NCBI GenBank assembly: GCA_965215265.1
Contig: OZ244048.1
Coordinates: 3,200,001 to 3,264,000 of the forward strand
Origin: Candidatus Poribacteria bacterium
GTDB lineage: Bacteria > Poribacteria > WGA-4E > WGA-3G
Reading direction: 5' to 3'
Length of the DNA: 64,000 nt
The notes under the pieces were generated by a model, which was not told the DNA's origin, ran no database searches, and saw nothing but the letters and a program-made list of their open reading frames with translations. The translations under genes and the position numbers were made by a program. Each line of letters starts with the position of its first letter. Position 1 is the stretch's first letter. Positions 16,114 to 40,411 of this stretch are shown in pieces.

Positions 16114-17712
16114 ATGAAGACGCTGTTAGGTTTATTAGTAGTGCTTTGCGTGATACTTGTTGGGAACACCCACGCTCAAAATTTGTTTACATTTAAAGCT
16201 GAGACGCAACAGGAGTTAGTTCCAAAACCAATCGAGATAGGCGATGCAGTTCCGTTGAAAATTACACTGACGCGTAATAATCGGGCGGTGGCGGGCGTGA
16301 CAGTTTCATTTAGGCCGGAGGATCCGGCCGAAGCAACGGTTAATCCGTCGAAGGGGACAACCAATGCGCGTGGAATGGTAACAACTAATGTCACCTTTCA
16401 TAAAGGCGGAGAAATCGATATTTTTGTAGATGCTCCGGCGCACGACTCTAGCTACACCCATACTTTCAAAGTCAGTAGGCAACCAGTCCAGATCCAGCTC
16501 ACCCGTATTGTCGCTACCCCTGTTAAGAAGATTGTGGGAGGTCAGCCTACTGCTCTTGGCGAGATAGCCGTTGGCGATACTGTCAGATACCAGATTGAAA
16601 TCAAAGGCGTGTCAAATTTAGCCGCTTGGCAAATGGACATTGTGTTCAATCCGGAGGTTCTTGAATTCGTTGAGATTAGGGAAGGGGATTTTCTTGAAAG
16701 AAACGACGTGAATGCTTTCTTCCAGGGAGGTACCCGGAGTTCAGGAAAAATCGCCGGCATAAGGCAAGCGCGCATTGGGCGGGTAACGAATGCTGCCGGT
16801 CAACATACATTAACCGCACCTGTAGCAGGTGTCAATGGGACGGGCACACTGCTAGAAATTGACTTTAAGGTATTGGAATTTGCAGAGGAGGCATTAGGGT
16901 TGCATAATGTACACCTCAGCGATTCCGCTAATTTCACAAATACCAACTTCAATGATCTTAATAGGTTGGATGTCCCGAACATGCATTTTAATCTTTCAAA
17001 GCGACATGATCGGATATCCTACTATATTGTGAGTAACCCTATGGTTGTGACTCAACGGTATCCGCTGGAAGATGTCAATCGCGATCGGCATGTCAATATC
17101 CAAGATCTGGTGGTAGTCGCAGGTAGCCTCGGGAAAGCCAGTAACAATCCACGTGCTGACGTGAATAACGATGGATTTGTCAATATGCAGGATCTCATCT
17201 TGGTTGCTCGACATCCAAATTGGGGCAAGCGTGTGGGGGTGACTACAGTTAGAGCTCAGAATAGTCAGATAGGAACTGCTCCCTCCCTTGCAAGTGGAAA
17301 TCTTACGCCTGAAACAATTCAGGGCTGGATAGACCTTGCGCGTGTTGAGGACGACGGTTCTGTGATTTTCGACCGCGGTGTCACAAATCTTGAAAATCTT
17401 CTAGGTTCCATGATTCCGTCCGAAACACGGCTCCTCTTGAACTACCCCAATCCATTCAACCCTGAAACGTGGATACCATATCAATTGGCGAAATCTGCGG
17501 ATGTCACGCTGAGCATCTACTCGGTGCAGGGTACCTTGGTTCGTACCTTAGCGTTAGGGCATCAACCTGCAGGGGTTTATCAAAGCAAGAGCCAAGCAGC
17601 CTATTGGGATGGCCAGAATGAGCTCGGTGAGCAGGTAGCAAGTGGTGTCTATTTCTATACGCTGGTTGCAGGTAATTTCAGTGCGACTGGAAAAATGCTT
17701 GTCAGGAAGTAA
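16114..17712 (+). CDS. Secreted protein: Ig-like, cohesin, dockerin and FlgD-Ig/T9SS-like C-terminal domains
   Basis: Signal peptide; cohesin-like VGDTV...LAAWQMDIVFNPEVLEFVEIREGDFL; paired dockerin repeats DVNRDRHVNIQDL and DVNNDGFVNMQDL; LLNYPNPFNPETWIPY...WDGQN...SGVYFY; AAGGAG RBS. Confidence 0.85.
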   Translation: MKTLLGLLVVLCVILVGNTHAQNLFTFKAETQQELVPKPIEIGDAVPLKITLTRNNRAVAGVTVSFRPEDPAEATVNPSKGTTNARGMVTTNVTFHKGGEIDIFVDAPAHDSSYTHTFKVSRQPVQIQLTRIVATPVKKIVGGQPTALGEIAVGDTVRYQIEIKGVSNLAAWQMDIVFNPEVLEFVEIREGDFLERNDVNAFFQGGTRSSGKIAGIRQARIGRVTNAAGQHTLTAPVAGVNGTGTLLEIDFKVLEFAEEALGLHNVHLSDSANFTNTNFNDLNRLDVPNMHFNLSKRHDRISYYIVSNPMVVTQRYPLEDVNRDRHVNIQDLVVVAGSLGKASNNPRADVNNDGFVNMQDLILVARHPNWGKRVGVTTVRAQNSQIGTAPSLASGNLTPETIQGWIDLARVEDDGSVIFDRGVTNLENLLGSMIPSETRLLLNYPNPFNPETWIPYQLAKSADVTLSIYSVQGTLVRTLALGHQPAGVYQSKSQAAYWDGQNELGEQVASGVYFYTLVAGNFSATGKMLVRK

Positions 17713-18097: not shown

Positions 18098-19258
18098 ATG
18101 CAGAAGAAGGACATCCACGACTTTTTGTCCGAGATGTCTGTTTCGAACTTTTCCGATCGGAGCATACGCCGCTTATTAGAAAACAAGGAAAACGTCCGGG
18201 GCTTGTTAGAACTCGTTGCGGCAGAACTCGCAGCGTTGATTGATTTTGAGCATCTGGTTCTAATCAATAGGAGCCTGCTGCCCGCCACTCTCCGAGAACA
18301 AGAGGCAGACATTGTGTATCGGGTGCCCTTCAAAAGTGATGGTGATGAGGCTGGGGAGGAGCTGCTCATCTATCTACTGATTGAACATCAATCGACGGTG
18401 GATGCGACGATGGGATTTCGTGTGCTTTTCTACATGATGCTGATTTGGGACGCAGAGCGGCGGCGGTGGGCGGCCGAGAAGGTGCGGAGAAGAGAGCGTG
18501 TGTTGCCGCCGATTCTGCCCGTGGTGTTTTACACGGGGGAGCGGCGGTGGGAGAAGCCACTGACACTTGAGGCGCTGATGAATCTGCCGGTGGCGCTCTC
18601 TCGATTCGTTCCGAGATTTGACATCCTGTTTCTGAATCTGAAAGGCACAGACAAGGCGACGCTGACAGAGGCGGCGCATCCGTTCGGGTGGCTGATGAGA
18701 GTGCTTCAACAAGGAGATTCAGACAAAGCGTCTATAAGCCGTGCGTTACGAGAGACTTTGACGCAGCTGGAGACGCTTGATGCGGTGGATTCAGGGCAGC
18801 GTAGGGAAGCGATAATGTATCTGGTATCGCTGATTGTGCATCGGCGTTCAAAGGAAGAACAAGAAGAGTTGATAGAGTTGATAGACCGGCATACGAGTGA
18901 TATGGAGGTAGCACCTATGGCAGAGACAATGGCAGAATTCCTCTTCGAACGAGGCATAGCACAAGGGATGGAACGAGGCATAGCACAAGGGATGGAACGA
19001 GGCATTGAACAAGGCATAGAAAAAGGCATTGAACGAGGCATTGAACGAGGCATTGAACAAGGCATAGAAAAAGGGGCGTGCCAGACGGCTATCAAAAATA
19101 TAACCGCCGTCCTCAACGCGCGATTCCCAGGCTGTGACATAGAGACGGCGACACAGCAACTCGAAACGCTTTCTAACCTAGAACACCTCGAGCAATTGCT
19201 GCTGACAGCCGTCAAAGCCGACAGTTTTCAAGCCTTCCTACAGGCATTAGAACTATAG
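18098..19258 (+). CDS. Rpn/YhgA-like recombination-promoting nuclease, copy 1
   Basis: EADIVY...LIEHQS nuclease motif, PVVFYTG, C-terminal GIE(R/Q/K) repeats. Confidence 0.9.
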   Translation: MQKKDIHDFLSEMSVSNFSDRSIRRLLENKENVRGLLELVAAELAALIDFEHLVLINRSLLPATLREQEADIVYRVPFKSDGDEAGEELLIYLLIEHQSTVDATMGFRVLFYMMLIWDAERRRWAAEKVRRRERVLPPILPVVFYTGERRWEKPLTLEALMNLPVALSRFVPRFDILFLNLKGTDKATLTEAAHPFGWLMRVLQQGDSDKASISRALRETLTQLETLDAVDSGQRREAIMYLVSLIVHRRSKEEQEELIELIDRHTSDMEVAPMAETMAEFLFERGIAQGMERGIAQGMERGIEQGIEKGIERGIERGIEQGIEKGACQTAIKNITAVLNARFPGCDIETATQQLETLSNLEHLEQLLLTAVKADSFQAFLQALEL

Positions 19259-19378
19259 AAACGCACGCGCCGAACGCCATGGCCGGCACCGGGCTGCTCT
19301 TGTCAGGGTGTCAGGTAGGAACCCTAGTCGTTTTGAGAAGGGAAGCACTTGACAACTGATACGTTTTAGGAGCATAAT

Positions 19379-20491
19379 ATGCAGAAGAAGGACATCCACG
19401 ACTTTTTGTCCGAGATGTCTATTTCGAACTTTTCCGACCGGAGCATACGCCGCCTATTAGAAAACAAGGAAAACGTCCGGGGCTTGTTAGAAATCGTGTC
19501 GGCAGAACTCGCGGCGTTGATTGATTTTGCGCATCTGGTTCCAATGAATAGGAGTCTGCTGCCCGCCACTCTCCGAGAACAAGAGGCAGACATTGTATAT
19601 CGGGTGCCCTTCAAAAGTGATAGGGATGAGGGTGCGGCAGAGCTGCTCATCTATCTGCTGATTGAACATCAATCGACGGTAGATGCGACGATGGGATTTC
19701 GTGTGCTTTTCTACATGATGCTGATTTGGGACGCGGAGCGGCGGCGGTGGGCGGCCGAGAAGGTGCGGAGAAGAGAGCGTGTATTGCCGCCGATTCTGCC
19801 TGTGGTGTTTTACACGGGGAGCGGAGGGTGGAAAAAGCCTCTGACACTTGAGGCGATGATGAATCTGCCTGCGGCGCTCTCTAGATTCGTTCCGAGATTT
19901 GACATCCTGTTTCTGAATCTGACAGGCACAGACAAGGCGACGCTGACAGAGGCGGCGCATCCGTTCGGGTGGCTGATGAGAGTGCTGCAACAAGGAGATT
20001 CGGACAAAGCGTCTATAAGCCGTGCGTTACGAGAGACTTTGACGCAGTTGGCGACGCTTGATGCGGTGGATTCTGGGCAGCGTAGGGAAGCGATAATGTA
20101 TCTGGTATCGCTGATTGTGCATCGGCGTTCAAAGGAAGAACAGGAAGAGTTGATAGAGTTGATAGCCCGGCATACGAGTGATATGGAGGTAGCACCGATG
20201 GCAGAGACAATGGCCGAATTCCTCTTAGAACGAGGCATAGCACAAGGGATGGAACGAGGCATTGAACAAGGCATAGAAAAAGGGATGGAACGAGGCATAG
20301 AAAAAGGGGCGTGCCAGACGGCTATCAAAAATATAACCGCCGTCCTCAACGCGCGATTCCCTCATTGTGACATACACACTGCTACGCAGCAACTCGAAAC
20401 GCTTTCTGACCTAGAACACCTCGAGCAATTGCTGCTGACAGCCGTCAAAGCCGACAGTTTTCAAGCATTCCTACAGGCTTTAGAACTATAG
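19379..20491 (+). CDS. Rpn/YhgA-like nuclease, copy 2
   Basis: As copy 1, four fewer 4-aa repeats. Confidence 0.9.
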   Translation: MQKKDIHDFLSEMSISNFSDRSIRRLLENKENVRGLLEIVSAELAALIDFAHLVPMNRSLLPATLREQEADIVYRVPFKSDRDEGAAELLIYLLIEHQSTVDATMGFRVLFYMMLIWDAERRRWAAEKVRRRERVLPPILPVVFYTGSGGWKKPLTLEAMMNLPAALSRFVPRFDILFLNLTGTDKATLTEAAHPFGWLMRVLQQGDSDKASISRALRETLTQLATLDAVDSGQRREAIMYLVSLIVHRRSKEEQEELIELIARHTSDMEVAPMAETMAEFLLERGIAQGMERGIEQGIEKGMERGIEKGACQTAIKNITAVLNARFPHCDIHTATQQLETLSDLEHLEQLLLTAVKADSFQAFLQALEL

Positions 20492-20611
20492 AAACGCACG
20501 CGCCGAACGCCCTGGCCGGCGCCGGGCTGCTCTTGTCGGGGTGTCAGGTAGGAACCCTAGTCGTTTTGAGAAGGGAAGCACTTGCCACCTGCCACGTTTT
20601 AGGAGTCTAAT

Positions 20612-21736
20612 ATGCAGAAGAAGGACATCCACGACTTTTTGTCCGAGATGTCTGTTTCGAACTTTTCGGATCGGAGCATACGCCGTTTATTAGAAAACAA
20701 GGAAAACGTCCGGGGCTTGTTAGAAATCGTGTCGGCAGAACTCGCGGCGTTGATTGATTTTGAGCATTTGGTTCCAATGAATAGGAGTCTGCTGCCCGCC
20801 ACTCTCCGAGAACAAGAGGCAGACATTGTATATCGTGTGCCCTTCAAAAGTGATAGGGATGAGGGTGGTGAGGAGCTACTCATCTATCTGCTGATTGAAC
20901 ATCAATCGACGGTAGATGCGACGATGGGATTTCGTGTGCTTTTCTACATGATGCTGATTTGGGACGCAGAGCGGCGGCGGTGGGCGGCCGAGAAGGTGCC
21001 GAGAAGAGAGCGTGTGTTGCCGCCGATTCTGCCTGTGGTGTTTTACACGGGGGAGCGGCGGTGGGAAAAACCACTGACACTTGAGGCGCTGATGAATCTG
21101 CCCGCGGCGCTCTCTCGATTCGTTCCGAGATTTGACATCCTGTTTCTGAATCTGAACCGCACAGACAAGGCGACGCTGACAGAGGCGGCTCATCCGTTCG
21201 GGTGGCTGATGAGAGTGCTGCAACAAGGAGATTCGGACAAAGCGTCTATAAGCCGTGCGTTACGAGAGACTTTGACGCAGTTGGCGACACTTGATGCGGC
21301 GGATTCAGGGCAGCGTAGGGAAGCGATAATGTATCTGGTATCGCTGATTGTGCATCGGCGTTCAAAGGAAGAACAGGAAGAGTTGATAGAGCTGGTAGCC
21401 CGGCATACGAGTGATATGGAGGTAGCACCGATGGCAGAGACAATGGCCGAATTCCTCTTCGAACGAGGCATGGCACAAGGCATAGAACGAGGCATAGAAC
21501 AAGGCATAGAACGAGGCATAGAACAAGGGAGAGAAGAAGGGAGAGAACAGGGGGCGTGCCAGACGGCTATCAAAAATATAACCGCCGTCCTCAACGCGCG
21601 ATTCCCTCATTGTGACATACACACTGCCACGCAGAAACTCGAAACGCTTTCTAACCTCGAACACCTCGAGCAATTGCTGCTGACAGCCGTCAAAGCCGAC
21701 AGTTTTCAAGCATTCCTACAGGCTTTAGAACTATAG
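20612..21736 (+). CDS. Rpn/YhgA-like nuclease, copy 3
   Basis: As copy 1, distinct repeat tract ending GREEGREQG. Confidence 0.9.
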   Translation: MQKKDIHDFLSEMSVSNFSDRSIRRLLENKENVRGLLEIVSAELAALIDFEHLVPMNRSLLPATLREQEADIVYRVPFKSDRDEGGEELLIYLLIEHQSTVDATMGFRVLFYMMLIWDAERRRWAAEKVPRRERVLPPILPVVFYTGERRWEKPLTLEALMNLPAALSRFVPRFDILFLNLNRTDKATLTEAAHPFGWLMRVLQQGDSDKASISRALRETLTQLATLDAADSGQRREAIMYLVSLIVHRRSKEEQEELIELVARHTSDMEVAPMAETMAEFLFERGMAQGIERGIEQGIERGIEQGREEGREQGACQTAIKNITAVLNARFPHCDIHTATQKLETLSNLEHLEQLLLTAVKADSFQAFLQALEL

Positions 21737-22078: not shown

Positions 22079-23173
22079 ATGAGTATCAGTATCGGGATGG
22101 TCGGCTTGGGGATGTTCGGGCCGTCGTTCATAAAATCGTTTAAGGAGCATCCGGATGTGCATCGCCTCGCCTTGTGTGATTTACATGCGGATAGATTGTC
22201 AAAGTGGGCGAAACAGTTTCACATCGCGGAGACATATCCGGGTCTTGATGCTATCTGTCAATCAGATTTAGATGCAGTGGTCATCATCACTCAACATTGG
22301 ATGCATGCACCACAAGCAATTCAGGCGATGGAAGCCGGCAAACATGTGTATACCGCTGTTCCGGCTGCTGTTTCCCTGGATGAGTGCGAGGGACTGGTAC
22401 GCACTGTTGAAAGGACCGGGATGATTTACATGAATGGCGAGACGAGTTATTTCCGTCCGGAGGCGGCTTTCTGTCGTGAGAAAGCCGCAGAGGGTGCGTT
22501 CGGCGAATTTGTCCACTGCCGTGCTGAGTATTTTCACGACATCAGCCACGGGCTCTACGATGTCGCAAAAAATCGATGGGGTGAGCAGTGGAGCCGTGAC
22601 AAGAGCGGTGGAATTCCGATGTACTATCCGACGCATTCTACGTGTTTTCCGATCTCAGTGATGAACGCTCACGCTACCTCTGTCTCTGCGCAAGGGTACG
22701 TCTACCCGAACGATGACTGGTTTCGAGAGGATACGATTCACAAAAATCCGTTCTCCAATGAAGTTGGACTGTTTACGATGAGCAACGGTGCCACGATGCA
22801 GATCTGTGAGTTCCGCCGGGTCGGGCACCCTGGATGTGAGCGCCTGAGCGGTATTTACGGCACAGCCGGAAGTTTCGAGCAAAACCTCGCTGGAGCCGTT
22901 TGGGCAGATAAACACGGAAAACAGACCGTCCATCCTTCAAGGGAGCATGAATATCTGCCGGAGGCATTGGCTGCTGATTTGGGGGGCCACGGTGGTTCAC
23001 ACGCCTATCTGGTGCATGAATTTGTGGATGCGGTGAATCGGCAGCGATTGCCACGCATCAATGTGTGGGAAGCAGTTAGGTACTGTGCGCCGGGGCTTGT
23101 CGCGCATGAATCTGCCGTCCGGGATGGAGAATTGCTGCCTGTTCCGGATTGGGGCGATGCGCCTTCGGATTAG
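22079..23173 (+). CDS. Gfo/Idh/MocA oxidoreductase
   Basis: IGMVGLGMFG, AGKHVY, YPTHS, GGHGGSH. Confidence 0.85.
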   Translation: MSISIGMVGLGMFGPSFIKSFKEHPDVHRLALCDLHADRLSKWAKQFHIAETYPGLDAICQSDLDAVVIITQHWMHAPQAIQAMEAGKHVYTAVPAAVSLDECEGLVRTVERTGMIYMNGETSYFRPEAAFCREKAAEGAFGEFVHCRAEYFHDISHGLYDVAKNRWGEQWSRDKSGGIPMYYPTHSTCFPISVMNAHATSVSAQGYVYPNDDWFREDTIHKNPFSNEVGLFTMSNGATMQICEFRRVGHPGCERLSGIYGTAGSFEQNLAGAVWADKHGKQTVHPSREHEYLPEALAADLGGHGGSHAYLVHEFVDAVNRQRLPRINVWEAVRYCAPGLVAHESAVRDGELLPVPDWGDAPSD

Positions 23174-24348
23174 AAGGCTGCTTCAAGCAAGCGTGCCATA
23201 TCTTCTTCTGTACAGGAACGCGGGTTGAACTTGTAACAGTGATCGAGCATGGCATCGGCTGCGAGTTTGGGAATGCGTTCGTGCGCCAGACCGGCTGTCT
23301 GGAGCCCGCTCGGTATTTCTAATTCCGCGTTCAGTTCTCGGATCTCATCAATCGCAGCACATGCCGCTTCACCGGGAGACATGCTTGTCGTGTTGACACC
23401 TAATGCTTTGGCGATTTCTGCGTATCCATCAATTGCATGAGGCAGGTTAAATTCCATGACGTGTGGCAACAGTATCGCGTTCGCCATGCCGTGCGGGATG
23501 GGTGCTTCTGTGGATAGCTGATGTGCGAGCGAATGAACGGCCCCGAGCCCTTTTTGAAATGAAAACGCGGCCATACAGGCTCCGAGCAACATCTCGTTTC
23601 GCGCTGTAATATCATCGCCCTGATGATACGCTTTTCGGATATTCGCGGCTAACATTTTCAGTGCCTGTAGTGCGACACCTTCTGCTATCGGGTGATATTT
23701 GGTTGCCACGTACGCCTCAATACCGTGCGTTATCGCGTCCATTCCAGTTGCAGCGGTGAGCGCGGGGGGCATTCCAACCGTCAATTCGGCATCTAGTACA
23801 GCGATGTCTGCCATATTGAAGGGTGTAACGATTGCGCGTTTGCGCCACCGATTCGTGGTCTGTCCGGAGGTGTCAGTGATAACGGTGCCTTGCGAAACTT
23901 CGCTGCCGGTTCCAGCGGTGGTAGGCACACAAATGAGGGGTGGCATGTCGGCGCGGATCCGTTCGAACCCGCCGGAATCAACGTAGTAAGGCTCTAAAGG
24001 CGGCGGGTGAGTTGTGAGGAGGCGGATAGCTTTTGCGGCATCCATAACGCTCCCGCCGCCGATAGCGATGACGACATCACATTTTTCTGCGGTGCAAATT
24101 TCCACCCCTCGTACAATACTGGTATCTGTGGGATTGGGTTCGATTTCGGTATAGCAGGCGTGGGCAAGTTTAGCGGCTTCCAAGGCTGCGAGTCCGCGAG
24201 CGAGTAGTCCTGCGTTGACGATACCGGCATCACTGACAACGAGCGGTTTTTTGCCCCCGAGATGCGTAACATGGGCACCCAGGTTTTTGATGGTACCGCT
24301 CCCACATTCAATACGTGGCGGTAAAAAATAGTTCAACTGTGCTTGCAT
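23170..24348 (-). CDS. Iron-containing alcohol dehydrogenase
   Basis: GGGS, PTTAGTGSE, DAITHGIEAY, HSLAH, PHG. Confidence 0.92.
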   Translation of the reverse strand: MQAQLNYFLPPRIECGSGTIKNLGAHVTHLGGKKPLVVSDAGIVNAGLLARGLAALEAAKLAHACYTEIEPNPTDTSIVRGVEICTAEKCDVVIAIGGGSVMDAAKAIRLLTTHPPPLEPYYVDSGGFERIRADMPPLICVPTTAGTGSEVSQGTVITDTSGQTTNRWRKRAIVTPFNMADIAVLDAELTVGMPPALTAATGMDAITHGIEAYVATKYHPIAEGVALQALKMLAANIRKAYHQGDDITARNEMLLGACMAAFSFQKGLGAVHSLAHQLSTEAPIPHGMANAILLPHVMEFNLPHAIDGYAEIAKALGVNTTSMSPGEAACAAIDEIRELNAELEIPSGLQTAGLAHERIPKLAADAMLDHCYKFNPRSCTEEDMARLLEAAF

Positions 24349-24430: not shown

Positions 24431-26389
24431 TTAATCCCAGCCTTGCTGTATCTCTGCAACTAATGCATTTAAATGCACGTGTCGAAAAAATTCAGATAAA
24501 CGTCTCCGTTTGAGGACTTTCGGCAGTAGAGTGAAGTACTGGTAAGGTTTCTCAGCGAGTTCGAGCACGTTTCGATAGGCTTTACTGGTTGCGTAGCCGA
24601 CTGTTAATTCGTATTTTTGTCCATGTTTTTTGAGGTAGTCAACGAGGCGCGTTGCACAGAGTTCTATTTGTGTTGTGTTTTGTGCGGCGAGTTGAAAATC
24701 GTATCGAAGAATAGCCTCTTCTTCCTCAAATTCTTCAGGGATGGGTCCATAGAGTCCGGACAACGTGACTTTGTGAATTCGGTGATGCTTGTCTGGAAAT
24801 GCTTCTTTCAGTTTTTTCGCTATGATAGTGTGGGTTCGTGAGAGTGAGTATGGTTTTTTTCCTGCACACGGAATGACGAGAAGAATCTCTTTCTGTGTTG
24901 GCGGCTGATATTCCGCAGGGACCTGAAAATCATCTGGCGTATAAGAGAGAGAGATGGTGCGCGTTTCGGCTTCCTGGAGGAGCGTGTTGGAATTTTCTGA
25001 GTTCTCGTAATTGAGCGGGAAAAGTTCCAATTGATTTGGGTTTTTGGCGTTTTTTTCTGCGACAGCCGGCATCTGCATTAATGTGCGGTTTAAACGGATG
25101 CCCAATTCAATATCTTGTGCAGAGAGCCAGTCTATGACATTCCGGATTCTGTTGTTGCGTTGGTATTTTTTGAAATGCCGTGTTAAGGCTTCTTGTGCGT
25201 CATCAGCCAGGATTGCCTCGCGCATTTCTGCGAGCATTTCGGTTTCCATCTCAAAATTGTGAAGTGCTATAACTGCATAGTACTCGCTTTTAAATTTGCC
25301 GGTTGAGGTGGGTTGATAACTTTTCTCATCCATGAAAGCTTGTTGTATCTCTTCAAGTGGCGTTGCTTGGCAAATGCGGCAATCACAGACATAGGTGTCC
25401 ATCTCTAGGATTTTCAATTTCTGGTGGTCCTGTGGGTGTAAATAGGAAAGTCCGCGTGATGCTTGGACGTAGGAAGAGCTGTCAAAACTATCAACGCCCA
25501 TATATGCTAAGATAGGTGTCAAGATGCCGGAGACGCCGAAGGCGTGAATCGGTGTATTATCTCGTCGTGTAGTTGGAATTGTGTTAAGGACGGCCTTGAA
25601 GAGTTGCATGATTGCGGTATCATTTTTCCCGCGCAACGGGACGAGGGAGCCGACGGCGAGTCCGAAGGAAGGTAAGATGTCGCCGAGTTGTTCAAAAACT
25701 TTATTCACATAAGCTTGTATATCGTTTCCGGATTGCCCATGACAGCAGGCGTAGAGGTATGGCATGTCCTCTTTTTGGCTGATTCGTTCGGCGGCTTGAC
25801 GGGCGTTAGCGAGACTTTTTGCCATTCTGAGTTCGGCCTCATCGCGTGCTAAGTTGGGTGGGATAGGATAGTCAAGGGATGCGACAATATCGCCATCAAA
25901 ATCTAATTGCATAGAGAGAATATCATCTGCTTCTGTCTCGGGTTGAATACCGTAGGCGGATAAATCTAAGCTAGTGTTGTAAAGCAGTTTGAAACCGCCG
26001 GAATCTAAGAAGAGCGTGCCGTTGTAGTCGCCATTGATTTCGCGGTAATGCTCGCGCATCGGTTTTTGTCGCCAACGTTCGAGATATTTGGCGGTGAAGT
26101 TAAAATCGAGAAAGTGTAAAACCTGTGACAACGCCGGCGTATCGTGTTTCATCAGATCGCGTAGAATGTATTTCCATACACCTCCGCCACGTGCACTGGT
26201 TCCAGTGAGGAAGTTGATAACAGGATAGAGCAGCGGTGTAGTTATTTTTCGATTTGCCGCCCTAAATTGCAATTCGCCAATTCGTCCATGCTGTGTAGAA
26301 ACGACGGTTTGGTAGATAGTGGGCTTTTTATGAGCACGGAGCTCCGGTTGTGTTTGCATAGTCAATGTTGTAATCTCATTTCTTTTCAA
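24431..26389 (-). CDS. Archaeal-type tRNA-guanine transglycosylase-like protein fused to an ArcS/DUF5591-like domain
   Basis: LDSGGF, LDYP, GSLVP, PIHAFG, GVDSFDSSSY, Zn site CDCRIC...HN; C-terminal PCAGKKPYSLSRTH...SGLYGPIPEEFE. Confidence 0.82.
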   Translation of the reverse strand: MKRNEITTLTMQTQPELRAHKKPTIYQTVVSTQHGRIGELQFRAANRKITTPLLYPVINFLTGTSARGGGVWKYILRDLMKHDTPALSQVLHFLDFNFTAKYLERWRQKPMREHYREINGDYNGTLFLDSGGFKLLYNTSLDLSAYGIQPETEADDILSMQLDFDGDIVASLDYPIPPNLARDEAELRMAKSLANARQAAERISQKEDMPYLYACCHGQSGNDIQAYVNKVFEQLGDILPSFGLAVGSLVPLRGKNDTAIMQLFKAVLNTIPTTRRDNTPIHAFGVSGILTPILAYMGVDSFDSSSYVQASRGLSYLHPQDHQKLKILEMDTYVCDCRICQATPLEEIQQAFMDEKSYQPTSTGKFKSEYYAVIALHNFEMETEMLAEMREAILADDAQEALTRHFKKYQRNNRIRNVIDWLSAQDIELGIRLNRTLMQMPAVAEKNAKNPNQLELFPLNYENSENSNTLLQEAETRTISLSYTPDDFQVPAEYQPPTQKEILLVIPCAGKKPYSLSRTHTIIAKKLKEAFPDKHHRIHKVTLSGLYGPIPEEFEEEEAILRYDFQLAAQNTTQIELCATRLVDYLKKHGQKYELTVGYATSKAYRNVLELAEKPYQYFTLLPKVLKRRRLSEFFRHVHLNALVAEIQQGWD

Positions 26390-26483
26390 GGATATAAACT
26401 TCTATCATATCACAAATCGAATTTTCTGACAACCCGGGCGGTGATTTTTGTGTTTTGCAGCAGCACGTCGGATCAATTTTCAG

Positions 26484-27053
26484 TCATAATGCGCTAAAAA
26501 TGAGATAGGCAACTAACGAAATACTGTTTACTACAACTAAGCTCCATTTTCCGATACGAGATTGTAGTCTCTGAAAGAGATAGATTGATACTGCAAGTGT
26601 AACGCATATTTCAATGGGTCTGACAATATGTCCATAATGTGCCGCATCCCAATAGGAGACAGGACTTTCAAAAGCGAAGTCGGAGAGGGGAAAGAAGTGG
26701 TGGTGGGCATCGTCGTTGTGAAGGAAAAAGTCGAAAAGGCTGTGCAGCAGTAAGCTCCAGCCTAAAATCGTTGCAGATTCGGATTTCACGAGATAACGGC
26801 AGAGCGCTAAGAAAACAAGAGTAATTGGAATGGAGTTGAAAAGGTCAAAGAAATTCTGCCATGTCTTTATGAAATATCGTTCGGACCAGAGTTCTTGTTG
26901 GGGTGTTTGGAGGATAAAAGTTTCCACGGCGAAGAAGATGAACATAGGTAAGTCGGGAAGCACTGCGCCAATCAAGGCATAGCGGTGAAGCTCAGGTTTC
27001 CCTGGACGCGAGAGCATCGCGATGTTAATGATGGCATGGGATTGGGTTGTCAT
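26484..27053 (-). CDS. Membrane-bound metal-dependent hydrolase (YdjM-like)
   Basis: SH, GAVLPD, HSLFD, HHFFP with TM segments. Confidence 0.65.
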   Translation of the reverse strand: MTTQSHAIINIAMLSRPGKPELHRYALIGAVLPDLPMFIFFAVETFILQTPQQELWSERYFIKTWQNFFDLFNSIPITLVFLALCRYLVKSESATILGWSLLLHSLFDFFLHNDDAHHHFFPLSDFAFESPVSYWDAAHYGHIVRPIEICVTLAVSIYLFQRLQSRIGKWSLVVVNSISLVAYLIFSAL

Positions 27054-33831: not shown

Positions 33832-36800
33832 TTATCCTTGATCGTCGAACTTAAGGCTGTCTGTAACGCTGGCGAGTACCTGGTTTATCTGTTCCAACAT
33901 CTCGGCTGACGGGGTTTCTCCCTTCGCGGTAATGACGAGCCGGAATTTGAAGTTGAGTTCAGGCGCGCTCTCTATCAGTTCGCCAACAGCCTCAGACAGA
34001 TCTTGAATTTCAACATCTGTTAGGGGCGATTCTGTATGGCCTACCCATGCTGGTTTCTGTACTCGCCTGTTTAGAAAGTCCTCATTATCTTCGGATAAAG
34101 TGATGGTGCCAGTGTTAATCGCTTTAGTTACAACGGCGCGAAACACCTCGTCGGGTATAGGGAAGCCTTTTTTGGTCTGGAGTGCGGTTTTAATGGCTCG
34201 GAGCGTCGCGGTTTGAGATTCCCCCCAGGCTGCTTCGACATCCGGACCGGTGAGCTCCGACGGTTCCAAGTCCGGAATAGGCTGCAACACTTTCAAATGG
34301 ACGTTATCCGCCTGTTCGGGGGTACAGGGCCATTCGGGTCCTCCGTCTATGATTTCAAAGAGGTTGGCATTCACGCCGCTGTCGATGGTATTAACAAGCA
34401 TCGACCACGGGATGGGGGTGGCTTTGCGTTGTGCTAACACGCTACGGATGCGCCCAACAGAGGTGGTTTCGTTATCCCACGCGTCGGACAGATTTTTGGG
34501 TGTGATGTGGGCGTGCTGAATCTGTGCGATCGGTTTTCGGAGCTGCAATGTATCGTTTCGGGCATCGTCCGGAATGGGTTCATTCTGATAGGCGTTATCT
34601 TGGTGGCAGGCCATAAGCATGCCGTTTTTAACGGCGGTCTGAATGGCTGTGAAAAGGACGTTGGGGTTGGCAATTGTTGGTGCCTGTGCTCCGTCAAAGA
34701 ACGCCCGTAGTGCTTCCACACTAATCGGGGCATTCTCATCGGGCCATACCTCCTGAAGCTTCCCGGGTACGAATAGGTTAGGTCTGAGGGTGTCGAGTTT
34801 AGCGTGTTGGATTGGTACGATATCGAAGTTTCGGTCCCGGAGTTCTGTCTCGGTAGTGGGTGCCTCGCGCCAATAGGTTAACTGGGTGCCGTCTGGCCGG
34901 GTGGATTGGAGTACGATTTGTCCTTCTTCGGCGGCACGTCGGAGGGTTTCAAGGAGTACCTGCTGGTTCAAGAGTCGCGGTAGTCTCGGCAGGCTGCCGA
35001 ACATCCGGTAGAAATCTTGTACCGGTTTCGCTGTCTCGTCTGGTCCCCATAATTCATAAGGGCCCGTTGGGGTGATGAGGGCTGGGTCTAGGGTGGCCTG
35101 GATCAATCTATCATCGCTGGTGAGTTTAGTTTTGACGCGCTCGAACGGTGAATCGTTCCCGGATGTCGGTATAGTGCTCGCTTCAATATTGCCGTCCGGG
35201 TTAACGGCTATCAGTACATTATACGCCCCGATGACCGAGTCAGCGATGCTGTTTTCGTCCTTGCGTTTCCGAGTGAGGAGCTGTGTCCGCTGCGATTCGG
35301 TCAAAGACCTCATCTCGTTCTCGTTCTGTTCGATGTTGTGCCATCCGAGGATTTTCCTGATGCTTTCTCGCAGTGTGTAGAGTCGGTTTGTATCGGCGGC
35401 GAGGATGAGTACGTTGTTCGGGAAGGTGCCGTCGAAGAACGCAGTGAGCGTCTCCGAGACCGCTTCTCCGGGGCGTGCTGTATCTTTGGGGTTTGCAATC
35501 ACAAAGTGGAGTTCGGGGGTGTCCGGCACATCGGTACGCGAGGTTGGCAGTGTGTGCAGCGCTACACCATCTCGTTTCCTGCCGAGGGAGGCATCTCTGA
35601 CGCGTTGGACGAGGTCGTCCGTGATCTGCTCGTCGGTAAGCCGTTCCATCGCACGGACGTGCATCCTGGTGAGATTAGTAGTGATGCTCAGGGACCATCT
35701 GGCTGGGTCTTCTTTGAGGAACCAGGAGCGTTCTCGCCAGGCATCGAGTCCTTTTTCGAGGGAGGCGGCATCCATGTCCGCGTGTGCGACGAGGCGGTAG
35801 AGGTCGGTGTCTTCTGCACTCTGCCCGGTGGGTTGCGAGTGCAGAAAAGTAGCGAGCACAGCAGCCTCGACCTCTCGGTGCTCGAGTTGGGGGAGTTGCG
35901 TCTGAACGGCCCGTGCTCTGTCTAGTTCGCCGTTGAGGATCGGTGTCCATTTATTGCTCTCTTCACAGGCGTTGATGAGTTCTTGGAGTGCATCCGAGAG
36001 TTCTGTATCGGTGGCGAGGAGTGTGCTGGGGCCGACGAACGGGGCGGTGTCTTTCCGTTCGGCTTCTTTCAGCATGAGTGCGAACGTTCGGAACATTCCG
36101 CGGGTGCCTTGGAAGCCTTTGAGCTGCGTCCATTTTTGATAGAGGACCTCGATGAGGTCGGGATGGAAGGGGTAGGATTTGAGGAGTGCGGCCTCTGGAT
36201 TATCGCTTTGTGTTGTGTCGAGTGAGAGTTTTTCGCGTGCGGCGAGCAGGCGTTTGACAATGGGTTTCCGTTTTTCTTCGGGTATGACGCTTTCAAAGAG
36301 TCGCCGTCTGAGCAGTTCTGCGATGTCGTCTCTGGAGACGGGTTCGACAGGCTTTTCCGTGCGGCGGAACACGCCCTCCAGCATAGTTAGGACGTTAGTG
36401 CCGGTCGGGTCGTCGGCGCTAATCTCGGCGGCGATGAGGCTGGCGACGATGGCGGCATGTTCCACTTTGTCTACTGCCTGCGTGAGTCCTTGGAAGAAGT
36501 CCTGCAGCGTTCCGAATCGATCGGGGTTGTCATTAACTGCACCGCGTGCGTACATCAGCGCTTCGTCGAGCAGGATGAGGGTAGACATCCCTTGCTTCTG
36601 TGGTGCTCTGAGGAGTTCGACGAGGGTCGGTTCGGCGGGCGGGACGTAGTCCCTATCATGGGCGGCGACCTTGGCGAGCCCTGCCTCACCGGCGAGTTGA
36701 TAGGCTAGTGCTCCCCAAGGCGTGTTAACGTGTCTCTGTTTCCCATCTGGGCCGAGCACCGAAAGTCCGTCTTTGACATCGAATTTGTCAAACGGGAGGA

Positions 36801-37188
36801 GGGCGACTCTGGCACGCGGCAACGTCGTTAACTCACTATCCTCCATGAATTCTTGGACTGTGGGGTGTGCTTGGAATTCAATGCCTCGTTCGGCGAGATG
36901 TAAGAGCGTAATCAGCGAGTGTGTTTTGCCACCGCCGTAGGCCACCTGCACCGTGATGACGGGGTTGCCATCCTCCCCAGCAAGCCGTCGAAGCACTTCG
37001 CGTACCAACCTTTTGAGGTTGCGGGTAGGGTAGGTGCGGTCGAAGAATTGGTCTGGGAGCCTGTAGACGTTAGGGGCATCCCCGGTTCGGACGCTGTAGA
37101 GGTCGGCTGCGAATTCTGCCAAGTTAAGGCTGCCGCTCCGGACATCTTCTCTTAATGTACACTCGGTATGCCATGCGTTACTGTTCAT
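33832..37188 (-). CDS. DUF499 family ATPase of a restriction-like defence system
   Basis: EFAADL, FFDRTYPT, Walker A YGGGKTHS, LLDE, SYPFHP, FQGTRG. Confidence 0.88.
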   Translation of the reverse strand: MNSNAWHTECTLREDVRSGSLNLAEFAADLYSVRTGDAPNVYRLPDQFFDRTYPTRNLKRLVREVLRRLAGEDGNPVITVQVAYGGGKTHSLITLLHLAERGIEFQAHPTVQEFMEDSELTTLPRARVALLPFDKFDVKDGLSVLGPDGKQRHVNTPWGALAYQLAGEAGLAKVAAHDRDYVPPAEPTLVELLRAPQKQGMSTLILLDEALMYARGAVNDNPDRFGTLQDFFQGLTQAVDKVEHAAIVASLIAAEISADDPTGTNVLTMLEGVFRRTEKPVEPVSRDDIAELLRRRLFESVIPEEKRKPIVKRLLAAREKLSLDTTQSDNPEAALLKSYPFHPDLIEVLYQKWTQLKGFQGTRGMFRTFALMLKEAERKDTAPFVGPSTLLATDTELSDALQELINACEESNKWTPILNGELDRARAVQTQLPQLEHREVEAAVLATFLHSQPTGQSAEDTDLYRLVAHADMDAASLEKGLDAWRERSWFLKEDPARWSLSITTNLTRMHVRAMERLTDEQITDDLVQRVRDASLGRKRDGVALHTLPTSRTDVPDTPELHFVIANPKDTARPGEAVSETLTAFFDGTFPNNVLILAADTNRLYTLRESIRKILGWHNIEQNENEMRSLTESQRTQLLTRKRKDENSIADSVIGAYNVLIAVNPDGNIEASTIPTSGNDSPFERVKTKLTSDDRLIQATLDPALITPTGPYELWGPDETAKPVQDFYRMFGSLPRLPRLLNQQVLLETLRRAAEEGQIVLQSTRPDGTQLTYWREAPTTETELRDRNFDIVPIQHAKLDTLRPNLFVPGKLQEVWPDENAPISVEALRAFFDGAQAPTIANPNVLFTAIQTAVKNGMLMACHQDNAYQNEPIPDDARNDTLQLRKPIAQIQHAHITPKNLSDAWDNETTSVGRIRSVLAQRKATPIPWSMLVNTIDSGVNANLFEIIDGGPEWPCTPEQADNVHLKVLQPIPDLEPSELTGPDVEAAWGESQTATLRAIKTALQTKKGFPIPDEVFRAVVTKAINTGTITLSEDNEDFLNRRVQKPAWVGHTESPLTDVEIQDLSEAVGELIESAPELNFKFRLVITAKGETPSAEMLEQINQVLASVTDSLKFDDQG

Positions 37189-37198
37189 AAATGTGTTC

Positions 37199-40144
37199 CT
37201 ATTTTCTATCTGTGCTCTGCTTTCGCGACAACGACTCTATGTCGAATAGAGATTGCTGTTGGTCTGTGTCAGTAGTCTTGCTTATATGAGTCCAGTCTGT
37301 ACCGATGCGTGCTGAGGGTTTGTAATTCAGCAGCGTCTCCAAAAGTGCCCTTTCATTGGAACCTTCGGGGTTCATCTCTATGAGTGCCTGTACAACTGGC
37401 TTGAAGACCTGGCTTTCCGCGAGCCCTGAATCGATAAAGTAGTCGTTTAGTTCGGCCCGTTCGTTGGCATCCCAGAGGAGCATGAGCCGATGGATAACGT
37501 CTATTATCGGAACCTGCCCTAAGGTGTGTGTATAACCGACGCGAGTTGCGTCGCGTTCGGTGTAACCGTGGAGTTTGAGTGCGTTGCCGGAGGCGACCTT
37601 CTTCAAGAAGCCGTCACGGCGGTTGCGGAGCTCGTCAAGGGATACGCCGTAGCCTTGTGCCAATAGGATACACTCGCCTACGGGGGCATCCGCGGTGCCG
37701 AAATGGTTCCTGTGCATCAGGTAGTAGGATGTCCATGCGTCTAAAGCCTCGGTGTTCTGGAGATTGAGAATCTGTCCCAATGCGAAGTTGGTGACGCGCC
37801 GTCTGACCTCCGTGAGAAATTCAGTTACCGTGAAGCGGTTGCCGGTTGCTCGCCGGACTTCTGTATGGGCGGAGTAGCTTTCGAGGGCGGGGCCGATGGC
37901 TGCCCAGACGAAGTCGGGGCCCCGGATGCCCATGTCCCAGAAGTCGCGGAGCCGTTCAGTGATGCGTGCTTTCATGGCCCTTGTGACTTGGTTGTACCAG
38001 CCGACTTTTGCGTCAGCGGGACGTTTCCGGCAGACGAGCCACAGCGACGTTGCGAGAGAGGCTTTCCTTTGTGAGCTCAGGCTGTTCTTTAGTTCTGTGT
38101 CAATAGGCCACGATGCGGTAACGACCAGCCCGGCTTCGATCATCGCTGTCACCAAGGTTTCCCATGCGTCTGGGGATTTGTGTGCGAACACAATCACTAT
38201 TCGCCCGGTGTCTACGAGTGCATTGCGTGCAGCTGAAAAAGTAGCGGCCATACCAGATTCGTAAAACTTCTTCGCCGCCTTATTATCGCCATCAAAATGA
38301 TCCGAATGTTGGACAAGTTCATCAGATTTTGGTGTGAGTGTGTCTGCAAAAATGTCAGGAAATTGTTCTCCAATTGAGCGCCGGAGCCATACATAGAAGA
38401 AGTCGGAGAGGTCTGCGTACGGAATCGCGTCATAGTAGGGCGGATCCGTAATAATTGCCGATACCTTTTGACTGACTTGACAACGGCTCGATTGTTGATT
38501 GATGTCGGGTGTGGAGGTTAATTTGGTCGCGAGCATGTTTTCCAGAAAACGTGTCACCGAACCAATGTGGGCGGAATAACTACCTGCGAGCTGAGAAAAG
38601 GGATTTAGCTCAGCAAAGTCCCAAACGATCGGCATTGCGAATCTCATAAAAGTGCTTCTTACTGCTTCGCTAGTGTTATGCCATGTACAGATCGTAGAAT
38701 TATAATCAGCAATTCTATTAACAAGGACTGCTAGGTAAGCCCAAACTGCCTCTATCCACGGCGTGGGATATCCAATTTTTTTCATTTCCTTACATGATGT
38801 AAGCGTCCATTTCACAAAAGTCATCAACGCCAGTAGCTGCCGGTCTCTAAAGAGCTGCGACCACTGCTTAAAGCCGTAGAGGGGGATGCTAAATCCGAGC
38901 GTTTTGGGGCTGGGCATCGGTTCATCGGGGATGCCGTGTGGGATTTGCGCTTCGATGGCTGCTAAGGTTTCGGGTGGTATCTCGGCTGCGTTAATCTCCT
39001 CTTGTGTGGGTGTGCGGTACTCCTTGCCGTAGGTTTCCTGATAAACGACGGCTGTCATCTGTGCCTTAAGTTTTCCGATATGTCCGCACCGTTTGATATG
39101 ATCGCCGGGTTGTGGAGCGCTGCAAAAGGGGCAGGTCGCAGCCGCCCCTCTACCGGACATTGTGGGAGTTCCAAGGTCGTCTACATTTTTCGGTGCGTAG
39201 ATTTCAAATTGGACGCGTTTCGTCTCGGGGTGCGTGGAGAGTTTGAGGGCGCGTTTTGCGTTGATGACGACTTTCTTCTGGTTTCTCGTCTCTTTGGTGC
39301 GTAGGAAATCGGGGCGTGCTCGATTTTCGGGTGTGTCAGGGAGCGTTTTCTCCGCTTTTTTGGACAAATAGAGGGTTTTGAGTAGCGGGATCTGCCCGTT
39401 GCAGCTCGGATCTTGACATGGGATTGTCCGTGTCCAGAGGTAGGCGACTGTCGGTTTGTCATCTATAGTCGGGTAGAAGTGCTTCAGTTCGTTGCGTGCG
39501 TTCTCTAAGACCCACTGTCCCCAGAGGCGGACGTGATCGACGAGGTCTCCGTTCTTCAGCTCGGGCGGTTCAGAGAGGTTGAGCTTCGGGAGTTGATGCG
39601 TTTTACCGGCGAGACGTTGCGGGTATTCGAGCGTGCATTTGAGGATGAACCATGCGACGGGGTTGTAGTCGTTGGCGATTGCTTCACAGCCGAGTCGCAT
39701 CGCTTCGAGGGGGATTGCCCCGCCGCCTGCGAATAGGTCGAGGACTTTCGGCGGCTTGCCGTTGTAAGCGGTCTGTATCAGTTCCCTAGCGATGCGGAGT
39801 TTATTGAGCCATCGTCCCTTCTGGTCTTTCTCGTGCCATTCTGCGTGTCCGTTTTCGTCGCCCCATCGGGTGAGTGCGGCGATGAGATCACAGAGATATT
39901 TGCGTTGGTCATCAGGGAGGGATGAGCCAGAGAGGCGTGTGTATTCGGCCTTGAGAGGCTCAGGTGCATCTTCGGGCTCTGGGAGTAGGGTAGCGAGTGT
40001 GACTGCTCGGCATGCGGCGAGGGGGCGTCGTGCGGGCCAAATATGGAGGTTGGAGATATGGCCGTGGTGTACGTTCTTTTCGTGTTTTGAATCTGTGGAG
40101 ACCTTTTCTAGGGGGAAGGCTTCCTCTATAAGCCTACGTGGCAT
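37199..40144 (-). CDS. DUF1156-containing DNA adenine methyltransferase
   Basis: LHIWPARRPLAACRA, DLFAGGGAIPLEA, TDPPYY, CxxC Zn pairs. Confidence 0.9.
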   Translation of the reverse strand: MPRRLIEEAFPLEKVSTDSKHEKNVHHGHISNLHIWPARRPLAACRAVTLATLLPEPEDAPEPLKAEYTRLSGSSLPDDQRKYLCDLIAALTRWGDENGHAEWHEKDQKGRWLNKLRIARELIQTAYNGKPPKVLDLFAGGGAIPLEAMRLGCEAIANDYNPVAWFILKCTLEYPQRLAGKTHQLPKLNLSEPPELKNGDLVDHVRLWGQWVLENARNELKHFYPTIDDKPTVAYLWTRTIPCQDPSCNGQIPLLKTLYLSKKAEKTLPDTPENRARPDFLRTKETRNQKKVVINAKRALKLSTHPETKRVQFEIYAPKNVDDLGTPTMSGRGAAATCPFCSAPQPGDHIKRCGHIGKLKAQMTAVVYQETYGKEYRTPTQEEINAAEIPPETLAAIEAQIPHGIPDEPMPSPKTLGFSIPLYGFKQWSQLFRDRQLLALMTFVKWTLTSCKEMKKIGYPTPWIEAVWAYLAVLVNRIADYNSTICTWHNTSEAVRSTFMRFAMPIVWDFAELNPFSQLAGSYSAHIGSVTRFLENMLATKLTSTPDINQQSSRCQVSQKVSAIITDPPYYDAIPYADLSDFFYVWLRRSIGEQFPDIFADTLTPKSDELVQHSDHFDGDNKAAKKFYESGMAATFSAARNALVDTGRIVIVFAHKSPDAWETLVTAMIEAGLVVTASWPIDTELKNSLSSQRKASLATSLWLVCRKRPADAKVGWYNQVTRAMKARITERLRDFWDMGIRGPDFVWAAIGPALESYSAHTEVRRATGNRFTVTEFLTEVRRRVTNFALGQILNLQNTEALDAWTSYYLMHRNHFGTADAPVGECILLAQGYGVSLDELRNRRDGFLKKVASGNALKLHGYTERDATRVGYTHTLGQVPIIDVIHRLMLLWDANERAELNDYFIDSGLAESQVFKPVVQALIEMNPEGSNERALLETLLNYKPSARIGTDWTHISKTTDTDQQQSLFDIESLSRKQSTDRK

Positions 40145-40411
40145 TCGTATTTCCCTTTGTTGTGTGGTTGATATAATAAATATAACTTACTTAATTGTGC
40201 GATTTCTGTCAAGCGGGGTTTAAGCCGCGTGTTTTTTTTCTGTTTCTGTGAGTATGCTAGCATATTTATAGAAATATGTCAAGTTTTTTTTATGTGTGTC
40301 ATTTTTCTAAACAAAAACCTTTCACCCTTCAAAAAAATGGGGGTAAGTGAGTTTTTGTGTCGGTTTCGGTTTAAATTGTAGGCTTGCAGCATGGATAGAT
40401 GAGGGTGGCTG

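Follow-up and report, generated by a model that had tools for sequence, protein, structure and literature searches.

The window analyzed here is a stretch of 64,000 nucleotides from a Candidatus Poribacteria genome (contig OZ244048.1, positions 3,200,001 to 3,264,000), and the gene in question lies at 24431..26389 on the minus strand, where a single open reading frame (ORF) encodes a tRNA-guanine transglycosylase (TGT) domain followed by a DUF5591 domain. Counted from the TTG at 26389 the product has 652 residues, the stop codon being at 24431-24433; a database record 100% identical to the window protein (P0002) is 642 residues long, which makes the ATG at 26359 (residue M11) the likelier start. 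Pfam placed TGT at residues 121-410 (E 1.8e-19) and DUF5591 at residues 492-613 (E 1.3e-14). An AlphaFold2 (AF2) model of the whole protein, built from a 20-sequence alignment, had a predicted local distance difference test score (pLDDT) of 87 and a predicted template modeling score of 0.86, and consisted of two folded domains with a disordered stretch at residues 438-475 (24965..25078; pLDDT <50), which is gappy and poorly conserved in our family alignment (A1). This stretch is the low-complexity linker named in the original prediction, which had been made from the letters of the DNA alone. All features of the gene given below lie on the minus strand.

The N-terminal catalytic region (residues 22-437; 25079..26326) comprises N-terminal beta strands, a TIM barrel, a Zn subdomain and a helical bundle. 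Among NCBIfam models it scored highest with the archaeal TGT (arcTGT, TIGR00432; 93.4 bits, below the cut-off of 350), followed by the generic TGT model (71 bits), the bacterial queuine/preQ1 TGT (bTGT, TIGR00430; 36.7 bits vs a cut-off of 306.75) and DpdA, the TGT paralogue of DNA-modifying systems (NF041059; 23.1 bits in NCBIfam and 21.5 bits in PADLOC, cut-off 200). A phmmer search of PDB sequences returned the Pyrococcus horikoshii arcTGT 1iq8 (E 1.1e-16), which was also the top Foldseek match of the whole-protein model (E 5.4e-20). In the 1iq8 alignment DSGGF, LDYPIPP, GSLVPL, PIHAFG, GVDSFDSSSY and CDCRIC fell on the corresponding arcTGT motifs, so that the alignment and the Foldseek match together show the TIM-barrel TGT fold with its catalytic Asp pair, substrate Asp and Zn site. 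The motifs quoted in the original prediction were all present: LDSGGF at residues 128-133 (25991..26008), with D129 aligned to arcTGT D95; GSLVP at residues 247-251 (25637..25651); PIHAFG at residues 280-285; GVDSFDSSSY at residues 298-307, including D300 and D303 (25469..25498); and the Zn site formed by CDCRIC (335-340) and H377 (25256..25387), the latter within HN at 377-378. To these we add LDYPIPP at residues 172-178, including D173 (25856..25876), aligned with the LDIPTPP stretch of arcTGT. The C1-C2-PUA scaffold of arcTGT was not seen, as there was no PUA or TGT_C2 match in Pfam and the model ends with a Rossmann-like C1 domain; the original prediction had likewise noted that no PUA domain was evident. 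Where it had spoken of a bacterial TGT fused to an ArcS-like domain, the wording has to change, because the barrel is, by its profile scores, arcTGT-like and not of the bacterial type. In the base pocket L249/V250, which align with arcTGT V197/V198, stand between the VV of arcTGT and the LA of bTGT (roles of these positions in PMC5699537); this pocket may be compatible with 7-cyano-7-deazaguanine (preQ0), a point to which we give low weight.

The C-terminal region (residues 476-652; 24434..24964) is a Rossmann-like domain of the type found as C1 in the archaeosine synthase ArcS. The exact ArcS motif PCx3KPYx2Sx2H claimed for it was indeed there, as PCAGKKPYSLSRTH at residues 507-520 (24830..24871), and a second motif, LSGLYGPIP at residues 543-551 (24737..24763), resembles the LSAxxG motif of DUF6884 (PMC11701544). 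Searched against PDB, the family profile matched AF0587 (2q07; E 5.8e-12), and PCx3KPYx2Sx2H was aligned in that match. Modeled separately, residues 476-652 gave a pLDDT of 88.9, and the only strong Foldseek match of this model in PDB was again 2q07 (E 5.1e-5). In a viral library the best match was the DUF5591 protein R9TEI9 of Vibrio phage nt-1 (E 3.5e-5, query-normalized TM-score 0.56), followed with weaker scores by YaaA and DUF6884 proteins. The C-terminal domain thus has the ArcS fold, the lack of which the original prediction had named as grounds for abandoning it. The nt-1 protein is the ArcS2 of PMC10516641, whose Table 3 reports that ArcS2 together with DpdA2 in Escherichia coli yields 2'-deoxyarchaeosine (dG+) in plasmid DNA while DpdA2 alone yields the deoxynucleoside of preQ0 (dPreQ0).

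A homologue search returned 396 proteins at E<=0.001, with both Pfam domains in all 120 among the matches listed. Among 1.84 billion representatives, 639 matched at E<=0.001, while a limit of E<=1e-30 left 103 clusters, and many of the matches are 550-700 residues long and align over their whole length. These numbers place the TGT-DUF5591 architecture far beyond chance. The closest named relatives were metagenome-assembled genomes of Poribacteria (70-71% identity), and database annotations read only 'tRNA-guanine transglycosylase' or '7-cyano-7-deazaguanine tRNA-ribosyltransferase'. Residue conservation was counted in 98 full-length members drawn from the loci examined below. Invariant in 98/98 were D129, S130, G131, G132, D173, H282, D303 and H377 of the barrel and C508, K512, P513, Y514, S517, S544, G545 and G548 of C1; D300 (94/98), C335 (97/98), C337 (82/98), C340 (97/98) and H520 (83/98) were nearly so. 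The C1 cysteine was missing in three more distant members of alignment A1 (P0160, P0168 and P0134). Such invariance indicates that both active sites are under selection across the family. Taken together, these results suggest that the gene product is a conserved and, as predicted from its sequence, catalytically intact two-domain enzyme that would form a distinct branch of the arcTGT/ArcS superfamily.

Within the phylum, DUF5591 was found in 58 of 176 genomes (46/133 among high-quality genomes). By family the counts were 18/111 (plus the window's own genome), 9/11 and 25/29, and by genus they included 0/40 and 12/65. Three genomes carried two copies, and in genome G031 the second copy of the TGT-DUF5591 gene was split into ORFs of 448 and 162 residues (L036, 8351-10219, plus strand) and appears decayed. 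Patchy distribution with duplicate and split copies is the behavior of an accessory gene. A phage origin was considered and rejected, as the protein had no tblastn match in 50,697 phage records; a scan of IMG/VR gave 4 weak matches to the TGT part only, at 23-25% identity. A foreign base composition was also rejected. The original prediction had called the gene AT-richer, and its GC content of 0.459 does lie below the genome mean of 0.481 (sd 0.026, 1959-bp tiles), although at the 17.6th percentile the difference is weak and not anomalous. Other classes of the phylum encode stand-alone DUF5591 proteins of 287-345 residues, which have an extra N-terminal part and the variant motif Q-C-S-x-R-R-P-F instead of P-C-x3-K-P-Y (L044 8909-11484, minus strand; L045 5862-8475, minus strand; L046 9569-10432, plus strand). 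In L044 and L045 the stand-alone gene overlaps one for an ATP-dependent DNA ligase, and in L046 the N-terminal part of the protein is a weak AlkZ-like match.

The window's genome (4.83 Mb, one contig, 95.4% complete) contains a canonical tgt at C1:918085-919209 (524.8 bits on Pfam TGT), so the condition that the original prediction had listed as telling against it, a protein that groups with canonical queuine TGTs and is the genome's only tgt, does not apply here. Also present were queC (C1:0.137 Mb), queD (0.95 Mb), queF (3.04 Mb), a queE homologue (4.04 Mb) and queA, all outside the window, which covers 3.200-3.264 Mb. The cell thus makes preQ0, and the TGT-DUF5591 protein is the second TGT in it. 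RaSEA (TIGR01210), the partner of ArcS, had no match in the 4.83-Mb genome, while the control scored above cut-off in 3 archaea, and DUF6884 had no match in this genome.

We then compared the surroundings of the gene among its relatives, in 3 loci from relatives, 20 regions from 19 phylum genomes and 80 metagenome loci, the last being the best 80 of 256 tblastn-confirmed matches and including many closely related hypersaline contigs. ORFs were called crudely and clustered by BLASTP, and Pfam, PADLOC and NCBIfam models were run over the cluster representatives. A family member was present in 100 loci (window, 19 phylum and 80 metagenome). Counted within 3 genes, as description only, uncorrected for a background rate of defense-gene neighbors and with clusters defined from the same loci, the neighbors were a second short TGT of ~414 residues (39/100 loci), a GHKL ATPase (HATPase_c_3; 36/100), DUF6884 (32/100), QueD (13/100), QueC (10/100), radical-SAM QueE (9/100), a large DpdJ-like helicase (PADLOC DpdJ, 182 bits; 9/100), PLD (7/100), and a YhhQ-type transporter (Vut_1), HerA and GIY-YIG (4/100 each). 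Dereplication at 90% left 77 representatives, 59 from metagenomes and 18 from the phylum (window included). Within 5 genes, 17/59 metagenome representatives had a que gene or yhhQ and 39/59 had a DNA or defense-type gene; for the phylum the figures were 2/18 and 9/18. Relatives at 31-49% identity adjoin queC/D/E, yhhQ, DpdJ-like helicases, PLD, the GHKL ATPase, DUF6884 and the second TGT. On the Natrinema plasmid NZ_CP082247 a full-length homologue (33% identity) sits between large DEAD/DEAH helicases and ATPases, and the Haladaptatus plasmid NZ_CP119784 has two full-length copies (33% identity) near a helicase, PLD and DUF6884, with a 352-residue TGT, an ATP-binding protein and a 1493-residue AAA protein as further neighbors; these homologues, too, are annotated 'tRNA-guanine transglycosylase'. 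These surroundings match what has been published on BRIGADE, a Dpd-like system of haloarchaea that combines YprA helicases and PLD nucleases with a predicted gene cluster for 7-deazaguanine biosynthesis (Bell et al., 2025, preprint; PMC12458937).

Several hypersaline loci (for example L077, L102 and L128) carry a block of DUF6884, the short TGT (~414 residues), the GHKL ATPase (~516 residues) and the fused TGT-DUF5591 protein (~673 residues). By its content, each such locus holds one split and one fused pair of TGT and C1-like domains. The short TGT of the block resembles arcTGT (123 bits) and, at 26 bits with the DpdA model, is no DpdA equivalog.

Closer to the window protein, a FastTree tree of 127 rows, which had a single ArcS outgroup and long-branch warnings and cannot place the family relative to arcTGT or DpdA, put it within a phylum clade of 20 rows. 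Neighbors in this clade were an N6_N4 DNA methylase (7 loci, 3 of which also have a MutH-like nuclease), a PLD-SNF2 helicase (3 loci; PADLOC 'HKD+Snf2', 267 bits), QueD (2) and an iron-dependent alcohol dehydrogenase (Fe-ADH; 7). In L034, L035 and L039 the methylase and the MutH-like nuclease lie directly upstream on the same strand, at a distance of ~110 bp from the TGT gene in L034. The sister clade (4 rows) has ABC-transporter and DUF433 neighbors, and the neighbors of the next clade (10 rows) include YhhQ (3), a DpdJ-like helicase (2), HerA (1) and QueD (1). In the window's genome the methylase homologue (79% identity) is at 3.92 Mb and that of the PLD-SNF2 helicase (73%) at 1.88 Mb, and no MutH-like gene was found; we therefore rejected these three as obligate partners there.

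In the window itself the gene stands alone, as had been predicted. Its neighbors are a 189-residue ORF, a GNAT protein, Fe-ADH and a GFO-type oxidoreductase. Around it we found no que gene, no dpdB/dpdC or restriction genes dpdD-K, no YprA-like helicase, no PLD or PD-(D/E)xK nuclease and no 7-deazaguanine cluster. In 7 loci (window, L001-L003 and L030-L032) the gene is followed immediately, on its own strand, by Fe-ADH (in the window at 23170-24348, minus strand), which overlaps the end of the TGT gene in L001 and L002; since all 7 belong to one closely related clade, we took this as inherited synteny and rejected Fe-ADH as a functional partner. The region is variable. A promoter-like site (TTGTCA, 17 nt, TG-TATGAT; 26404..26432) precedes both candidate starts, as a consensus match only, such sites being no commoner than by chance (6 observed vs 6.4 expected in shuffled sequence).

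Other features of the window are noted here for completeness. The 189-residue ORF directly upstream (26484-27053, minus strand), considered as a partner by virtue of its position and set aside, has no Pfam, NCBIfam or PADLOC family; it showed an Atlas similarity to YdjM-like metal-dependent membrane hydrolases (score 0.96, a lead only), and homologues of it recur no more than 3 genes from the TGT-DUF5591 gene in L048 and L072. Three tandem Transposase_31/YhgA-like paralogues of 386, 370 and 374 residues occupy 18098-21736 (plus strand), 2.7-6.3 kb from the TGT gene, and are preceded at 16114-17712 (plus strand) by a 532-residue protein with cohesin, dockerin, Big_1, FlgD_ig and a weak Por_Secre_tail match. 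At a distance of 7.4 kb on the other side, a defense-like trio (33832-43885, minus strand) consists of a DUF499 protein (1118 residues), a DUF1156 protein with a weak D12 methyltransferase match (981 residues) and an SNF2/ResIII helicase with NOV_C (1157 residues).

That one chain inserts preQ0 and then converts it remains the best reading of these data, and our leading proposal, which we advance tentatively and at somewhat less than an even chance, is that it does so most likely on DNA. The domains, the residues, the family, the neighborhoods of relatives and the queuosine pathway of the genome are observations; the chemistry, the product and the DNA target are what we infer. In this proposal preQ0 would be supplied by the cell's own FolE/QueD/QueE/QueC pathway, and the barrel would exchange a guanine in nucleic acid for it, with D303 or D300 as nucleophile, D129 as acid/base and D173 in base recognition, by analogy with arcTGT. 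The flexibly tethered C1 domain would then bring Cys508 to attack the nitrile of the inserted base, and the adduct could be resolved by ammonia, lysine or water, giving an amidine (like archaeosine, G+, or a lysine adduct) or an amide (like 7-amido-7-deazaguanine). The comparison systems differ in the product of this step: ArcS of Methanocaldococcus jannaschii was reported to use NH4+, Asn or Gln and that of Thermococcus kodakarensis uses lysine (PMC11298593), nt-1 ArcS2 leads to dG+ in E. coli without RaSEA (PMC10516641), and DpdC makes an amide (PMC10164549). DNA is the most likely substrate because the C2 and PUA domains that bind tRNA are absent and because relatives sit in loci of 7-deazaguanine DNA modification and restriction. 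In the window's genome the gene would act as a solo, or orphan, DNA writer. A bolder form, which we consider possible but on the whole doubtful, is that this one polypeptide suffices to give bacterial chromosomal DNA an orphan epigenetic mark, a 7-deazaguanine of the amidine type (dG+-like or a lysine adduct), with no dedicated ATPase or restriction partner, and that the family is the missing hypermodification enzyme of Dpd-like and BRIGADE systems.

Several observations weigh against the proposal of a DNA-directed enzyme. No DNA or defense partner adjoins the gene in the window, and the placement of the methylase and PLD-SNF2 homologues at other loci means that adjacency to such genes is not obligatory. 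The original prediction had left the target open among tRNA, other RNA and DNA, and the family neighborhoods now point to DNA, yet none of those partners stands beside the window gene, and the neighborhood counts carry the descriptive character and the relatedness of contigs described above. The absence of phage matches, the low DpdA score and the near universality of the gene in two families of the phylum, which would also fit a housekeeping role on RNA, belong here as well. Partners required in two comparison systems are also lacking: ArcS of T. kodakarensis shows activity only when complexed with RaSEA (PMC11298593), which had no match in this genome, and Salmonella DpdA requires the DpdB ATPase (PMC10164549), whereas no DpdB-type partner was seen here. 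Phage DpdA2, on the other hand, works alone in E. coli (PMC10516641).

The housekeeping alternative would make the protein a compact arcTGT/ArcS hybrid that gives tRNA, or some other structured RNA of the bacterium, an archaeosine-like base (G+ or preQ0-Lys), with one chain in place of two archaeal proteins. Its best profile and fold matches are tRNA enzymes (arcTGT at 93 bits, ArcS at 90 bits, 1iq8 as top Foldseek match), and its 9/11 and 25/29 occurrence, a chromosomal position that is stable within genus and family (ComEC and Fe-ADH synteny) and the lack of a defense partner in the window all fit such a role. ArcS, moreover, takes the preQ0 nucleoside or 5'-phosphate as minimal substrate (PMC11298593), so that C1 does not dictate the polymer. 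However, the protein has neither C2 nor PUA, with which arcTGT and ArcS hold tRNA (PMC5699537), and G+ in tRNA is described as limited to Archaea (PMC5485725). The gene is absent from 118/176 phylum genomes, including all 40 of one genus, the neighbors of its relatives are DNA enzymes and not translation genes, and the genome already has a complete queuosine pathway for tRNA; we regard a tRNA or other RNA target as unlikely. The same minimal substrates of ArcS would also suit an enzyme that salvages or converts preQ0 or related deazapurines as free base or nucleotide, with no polymer involved, as would the adjacent YhhQ-type transporter in 4 loci, QueD in several and Fe-ADH directly downstream in 7 closely related ones. 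Yet TGT-family enzymes are known only for base exchange in polymers (PMC5699537), the nucleophile and general-acid Asp of glycosidic exchange are strictly conserved here, and the link to Fe-ADH does not extend beyond one family of close relatives, which makes this the least probable of the explanations considered. Hardly more probable is a defense-side enzyme acting on foreign 7-deazaguanine-modified DNA, which would remove the modified base by exchange or bind it covalently via Cys508 instead of writing a mark on self DNA. TGT enzymes act by exchange, the gene is patchily distributed, the family is tied to helicases and nucleases of Dpd-like or BRIGADE-like loci in which the second TGT, DUF6884 and the ATPase could be the writer, and glycosylases that target 7-deazaguanine phage DNA have been reported as defense enzymes (bioRxiv 10.1101/2025.10.29.685425). 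Against this, the association with queC/D/E and yhhQ is easier to reconcile with preQ0 consumption than with an eraser, no reverse reaction is catalyzed by ArcS (PMC11298593), and the window offers no nuclease or helicase partner.

If the DNA-directed proposal is true, no simpler route to a hypermodified purine in DNA would be known than a one-gene writer that both inserts and matures its base. Known 7-deazaguanines in DNA come from phages, by way of DpdA with ArcS2, Gat-QueC or QueF, and from bacteria that have the multi-gene Dpd system; dG+ has been reported from phage DNA, and archaeosine in tRNA only from archaea. Such a writer would be a compact tool for restriction-resistant or tagged DNA and a direct handle on the product of the 'base hypermodification' module in Dpd-like and BRIGADE defense loci, and uncultivated sponge symbionts (Poribacteria) may carry a DNA mark of this kind. 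With tRNA as the target, Bacteria would have their first archaeosine-type modification.

Comparison with known systems places the protein between several of them. ArcS consists of a TGT-like N-terminal domain, the catalytic, motif-bearing C1, C2 and PUA (PMC10516641, PMC5699537), so the window protein is not a new fusion, as had been supposed, but a member of the arcTGT/ArcS superfamily without C2 and PUA. It shares with ArcS a TGT-like N-domain followed by C1/DUF5591 with PCx3KPYx2Sx2H, as well as the Zn ligands and the GVDxxD Asp, and differs in the lack of C2 and PUA, in a genome without RaSEA and in being bacterial, whereas ArcS is from Euryarchaeota. The ArcS model (NF040592) gave 90.1 bits vs a cut-off of 440, with matches only to model positions 287-405 and part of the N-domain. 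Set beside P0270, the one bona fide ArcS on which this comparison rests (443.5 bits vs a cut-off of 440), the protein has D300, D303, the Zn ligands and the C1 motif in common; P0270, however, has no DSG motif and has F, C and ATIS where the window protein has D129, D173 and GSLV. Unlike P0270, the window protein keeps the full TGT catalytic set. With arcTGT (1iq8) the resemblance is closest in the barrel, the best match in both sequence and fold, where catalytic Asp, substrate Asp and Zn site align, and ends at the C-terminus, an ArcS-type catalytic C1 in place of the C1-C2-PUA scaffold for tRNA.

Like DpdA, as this is defined in PMC5699537, the protein is a tgt paralogue whose pocket is arcTGT-like and which lacks PUA, and it was a paralogue with these two features and with DNA-gene neighbors that led to the discovery of DpdA (PMC5699537). 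Both DpdA with DpdC and phage DpdA2 with ArcS2 combine a PUA-less tgt paralogue with a nitrile-converting enzyme, whereas here the two predicted activities would reside on one chain. Relatives of the window protein adjoin DpdJ-like helicases, PLD and que genes as in Dpd systems; the window differs in having no DpdB-type partner and no dpdD-K, and the DpdA model scores 23 bits vs 200. ArcS2 shares the DUF5591 fold with its Cys-Lys motif (the R9TEI9 match), but stands alone beside a separate viral DpdA, while the window's C1 is fused to a TGT and chromosomal. Homologues of the same architecture (31-35% identity) share their loci with YprA/DpdJ-like helicases, PLD and a cluster for 7-deazaguanine biosynthesis, as described for BRIGADE in PMC12458937, in the main text of which TGT, transglycosylase, ArcS and DpdA have 0 occurrences (its supplements may list the architecture); the window gene, in contrast, is that of a bacterium and stands by itself, neither a YprA helicase nor a PLD nuclease adjoining it. 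As far as we searched, no published description of a bacterial TGT-C1 protein without PUA was found, although the supplements of PMC12458937, PMC10516641 and PMC6884629 may list one; the parts, the chemistry and the type of system are all known, and what the search did not turn up in print is their combination in a PUA-less bacterial TGT-C1 protein. Seen next to arcTGT, which performs the transglycosylation only, and ArcS, which performs the C1 chemistry only, the TGT-C1 family may resemble the undivided ancestor of both.

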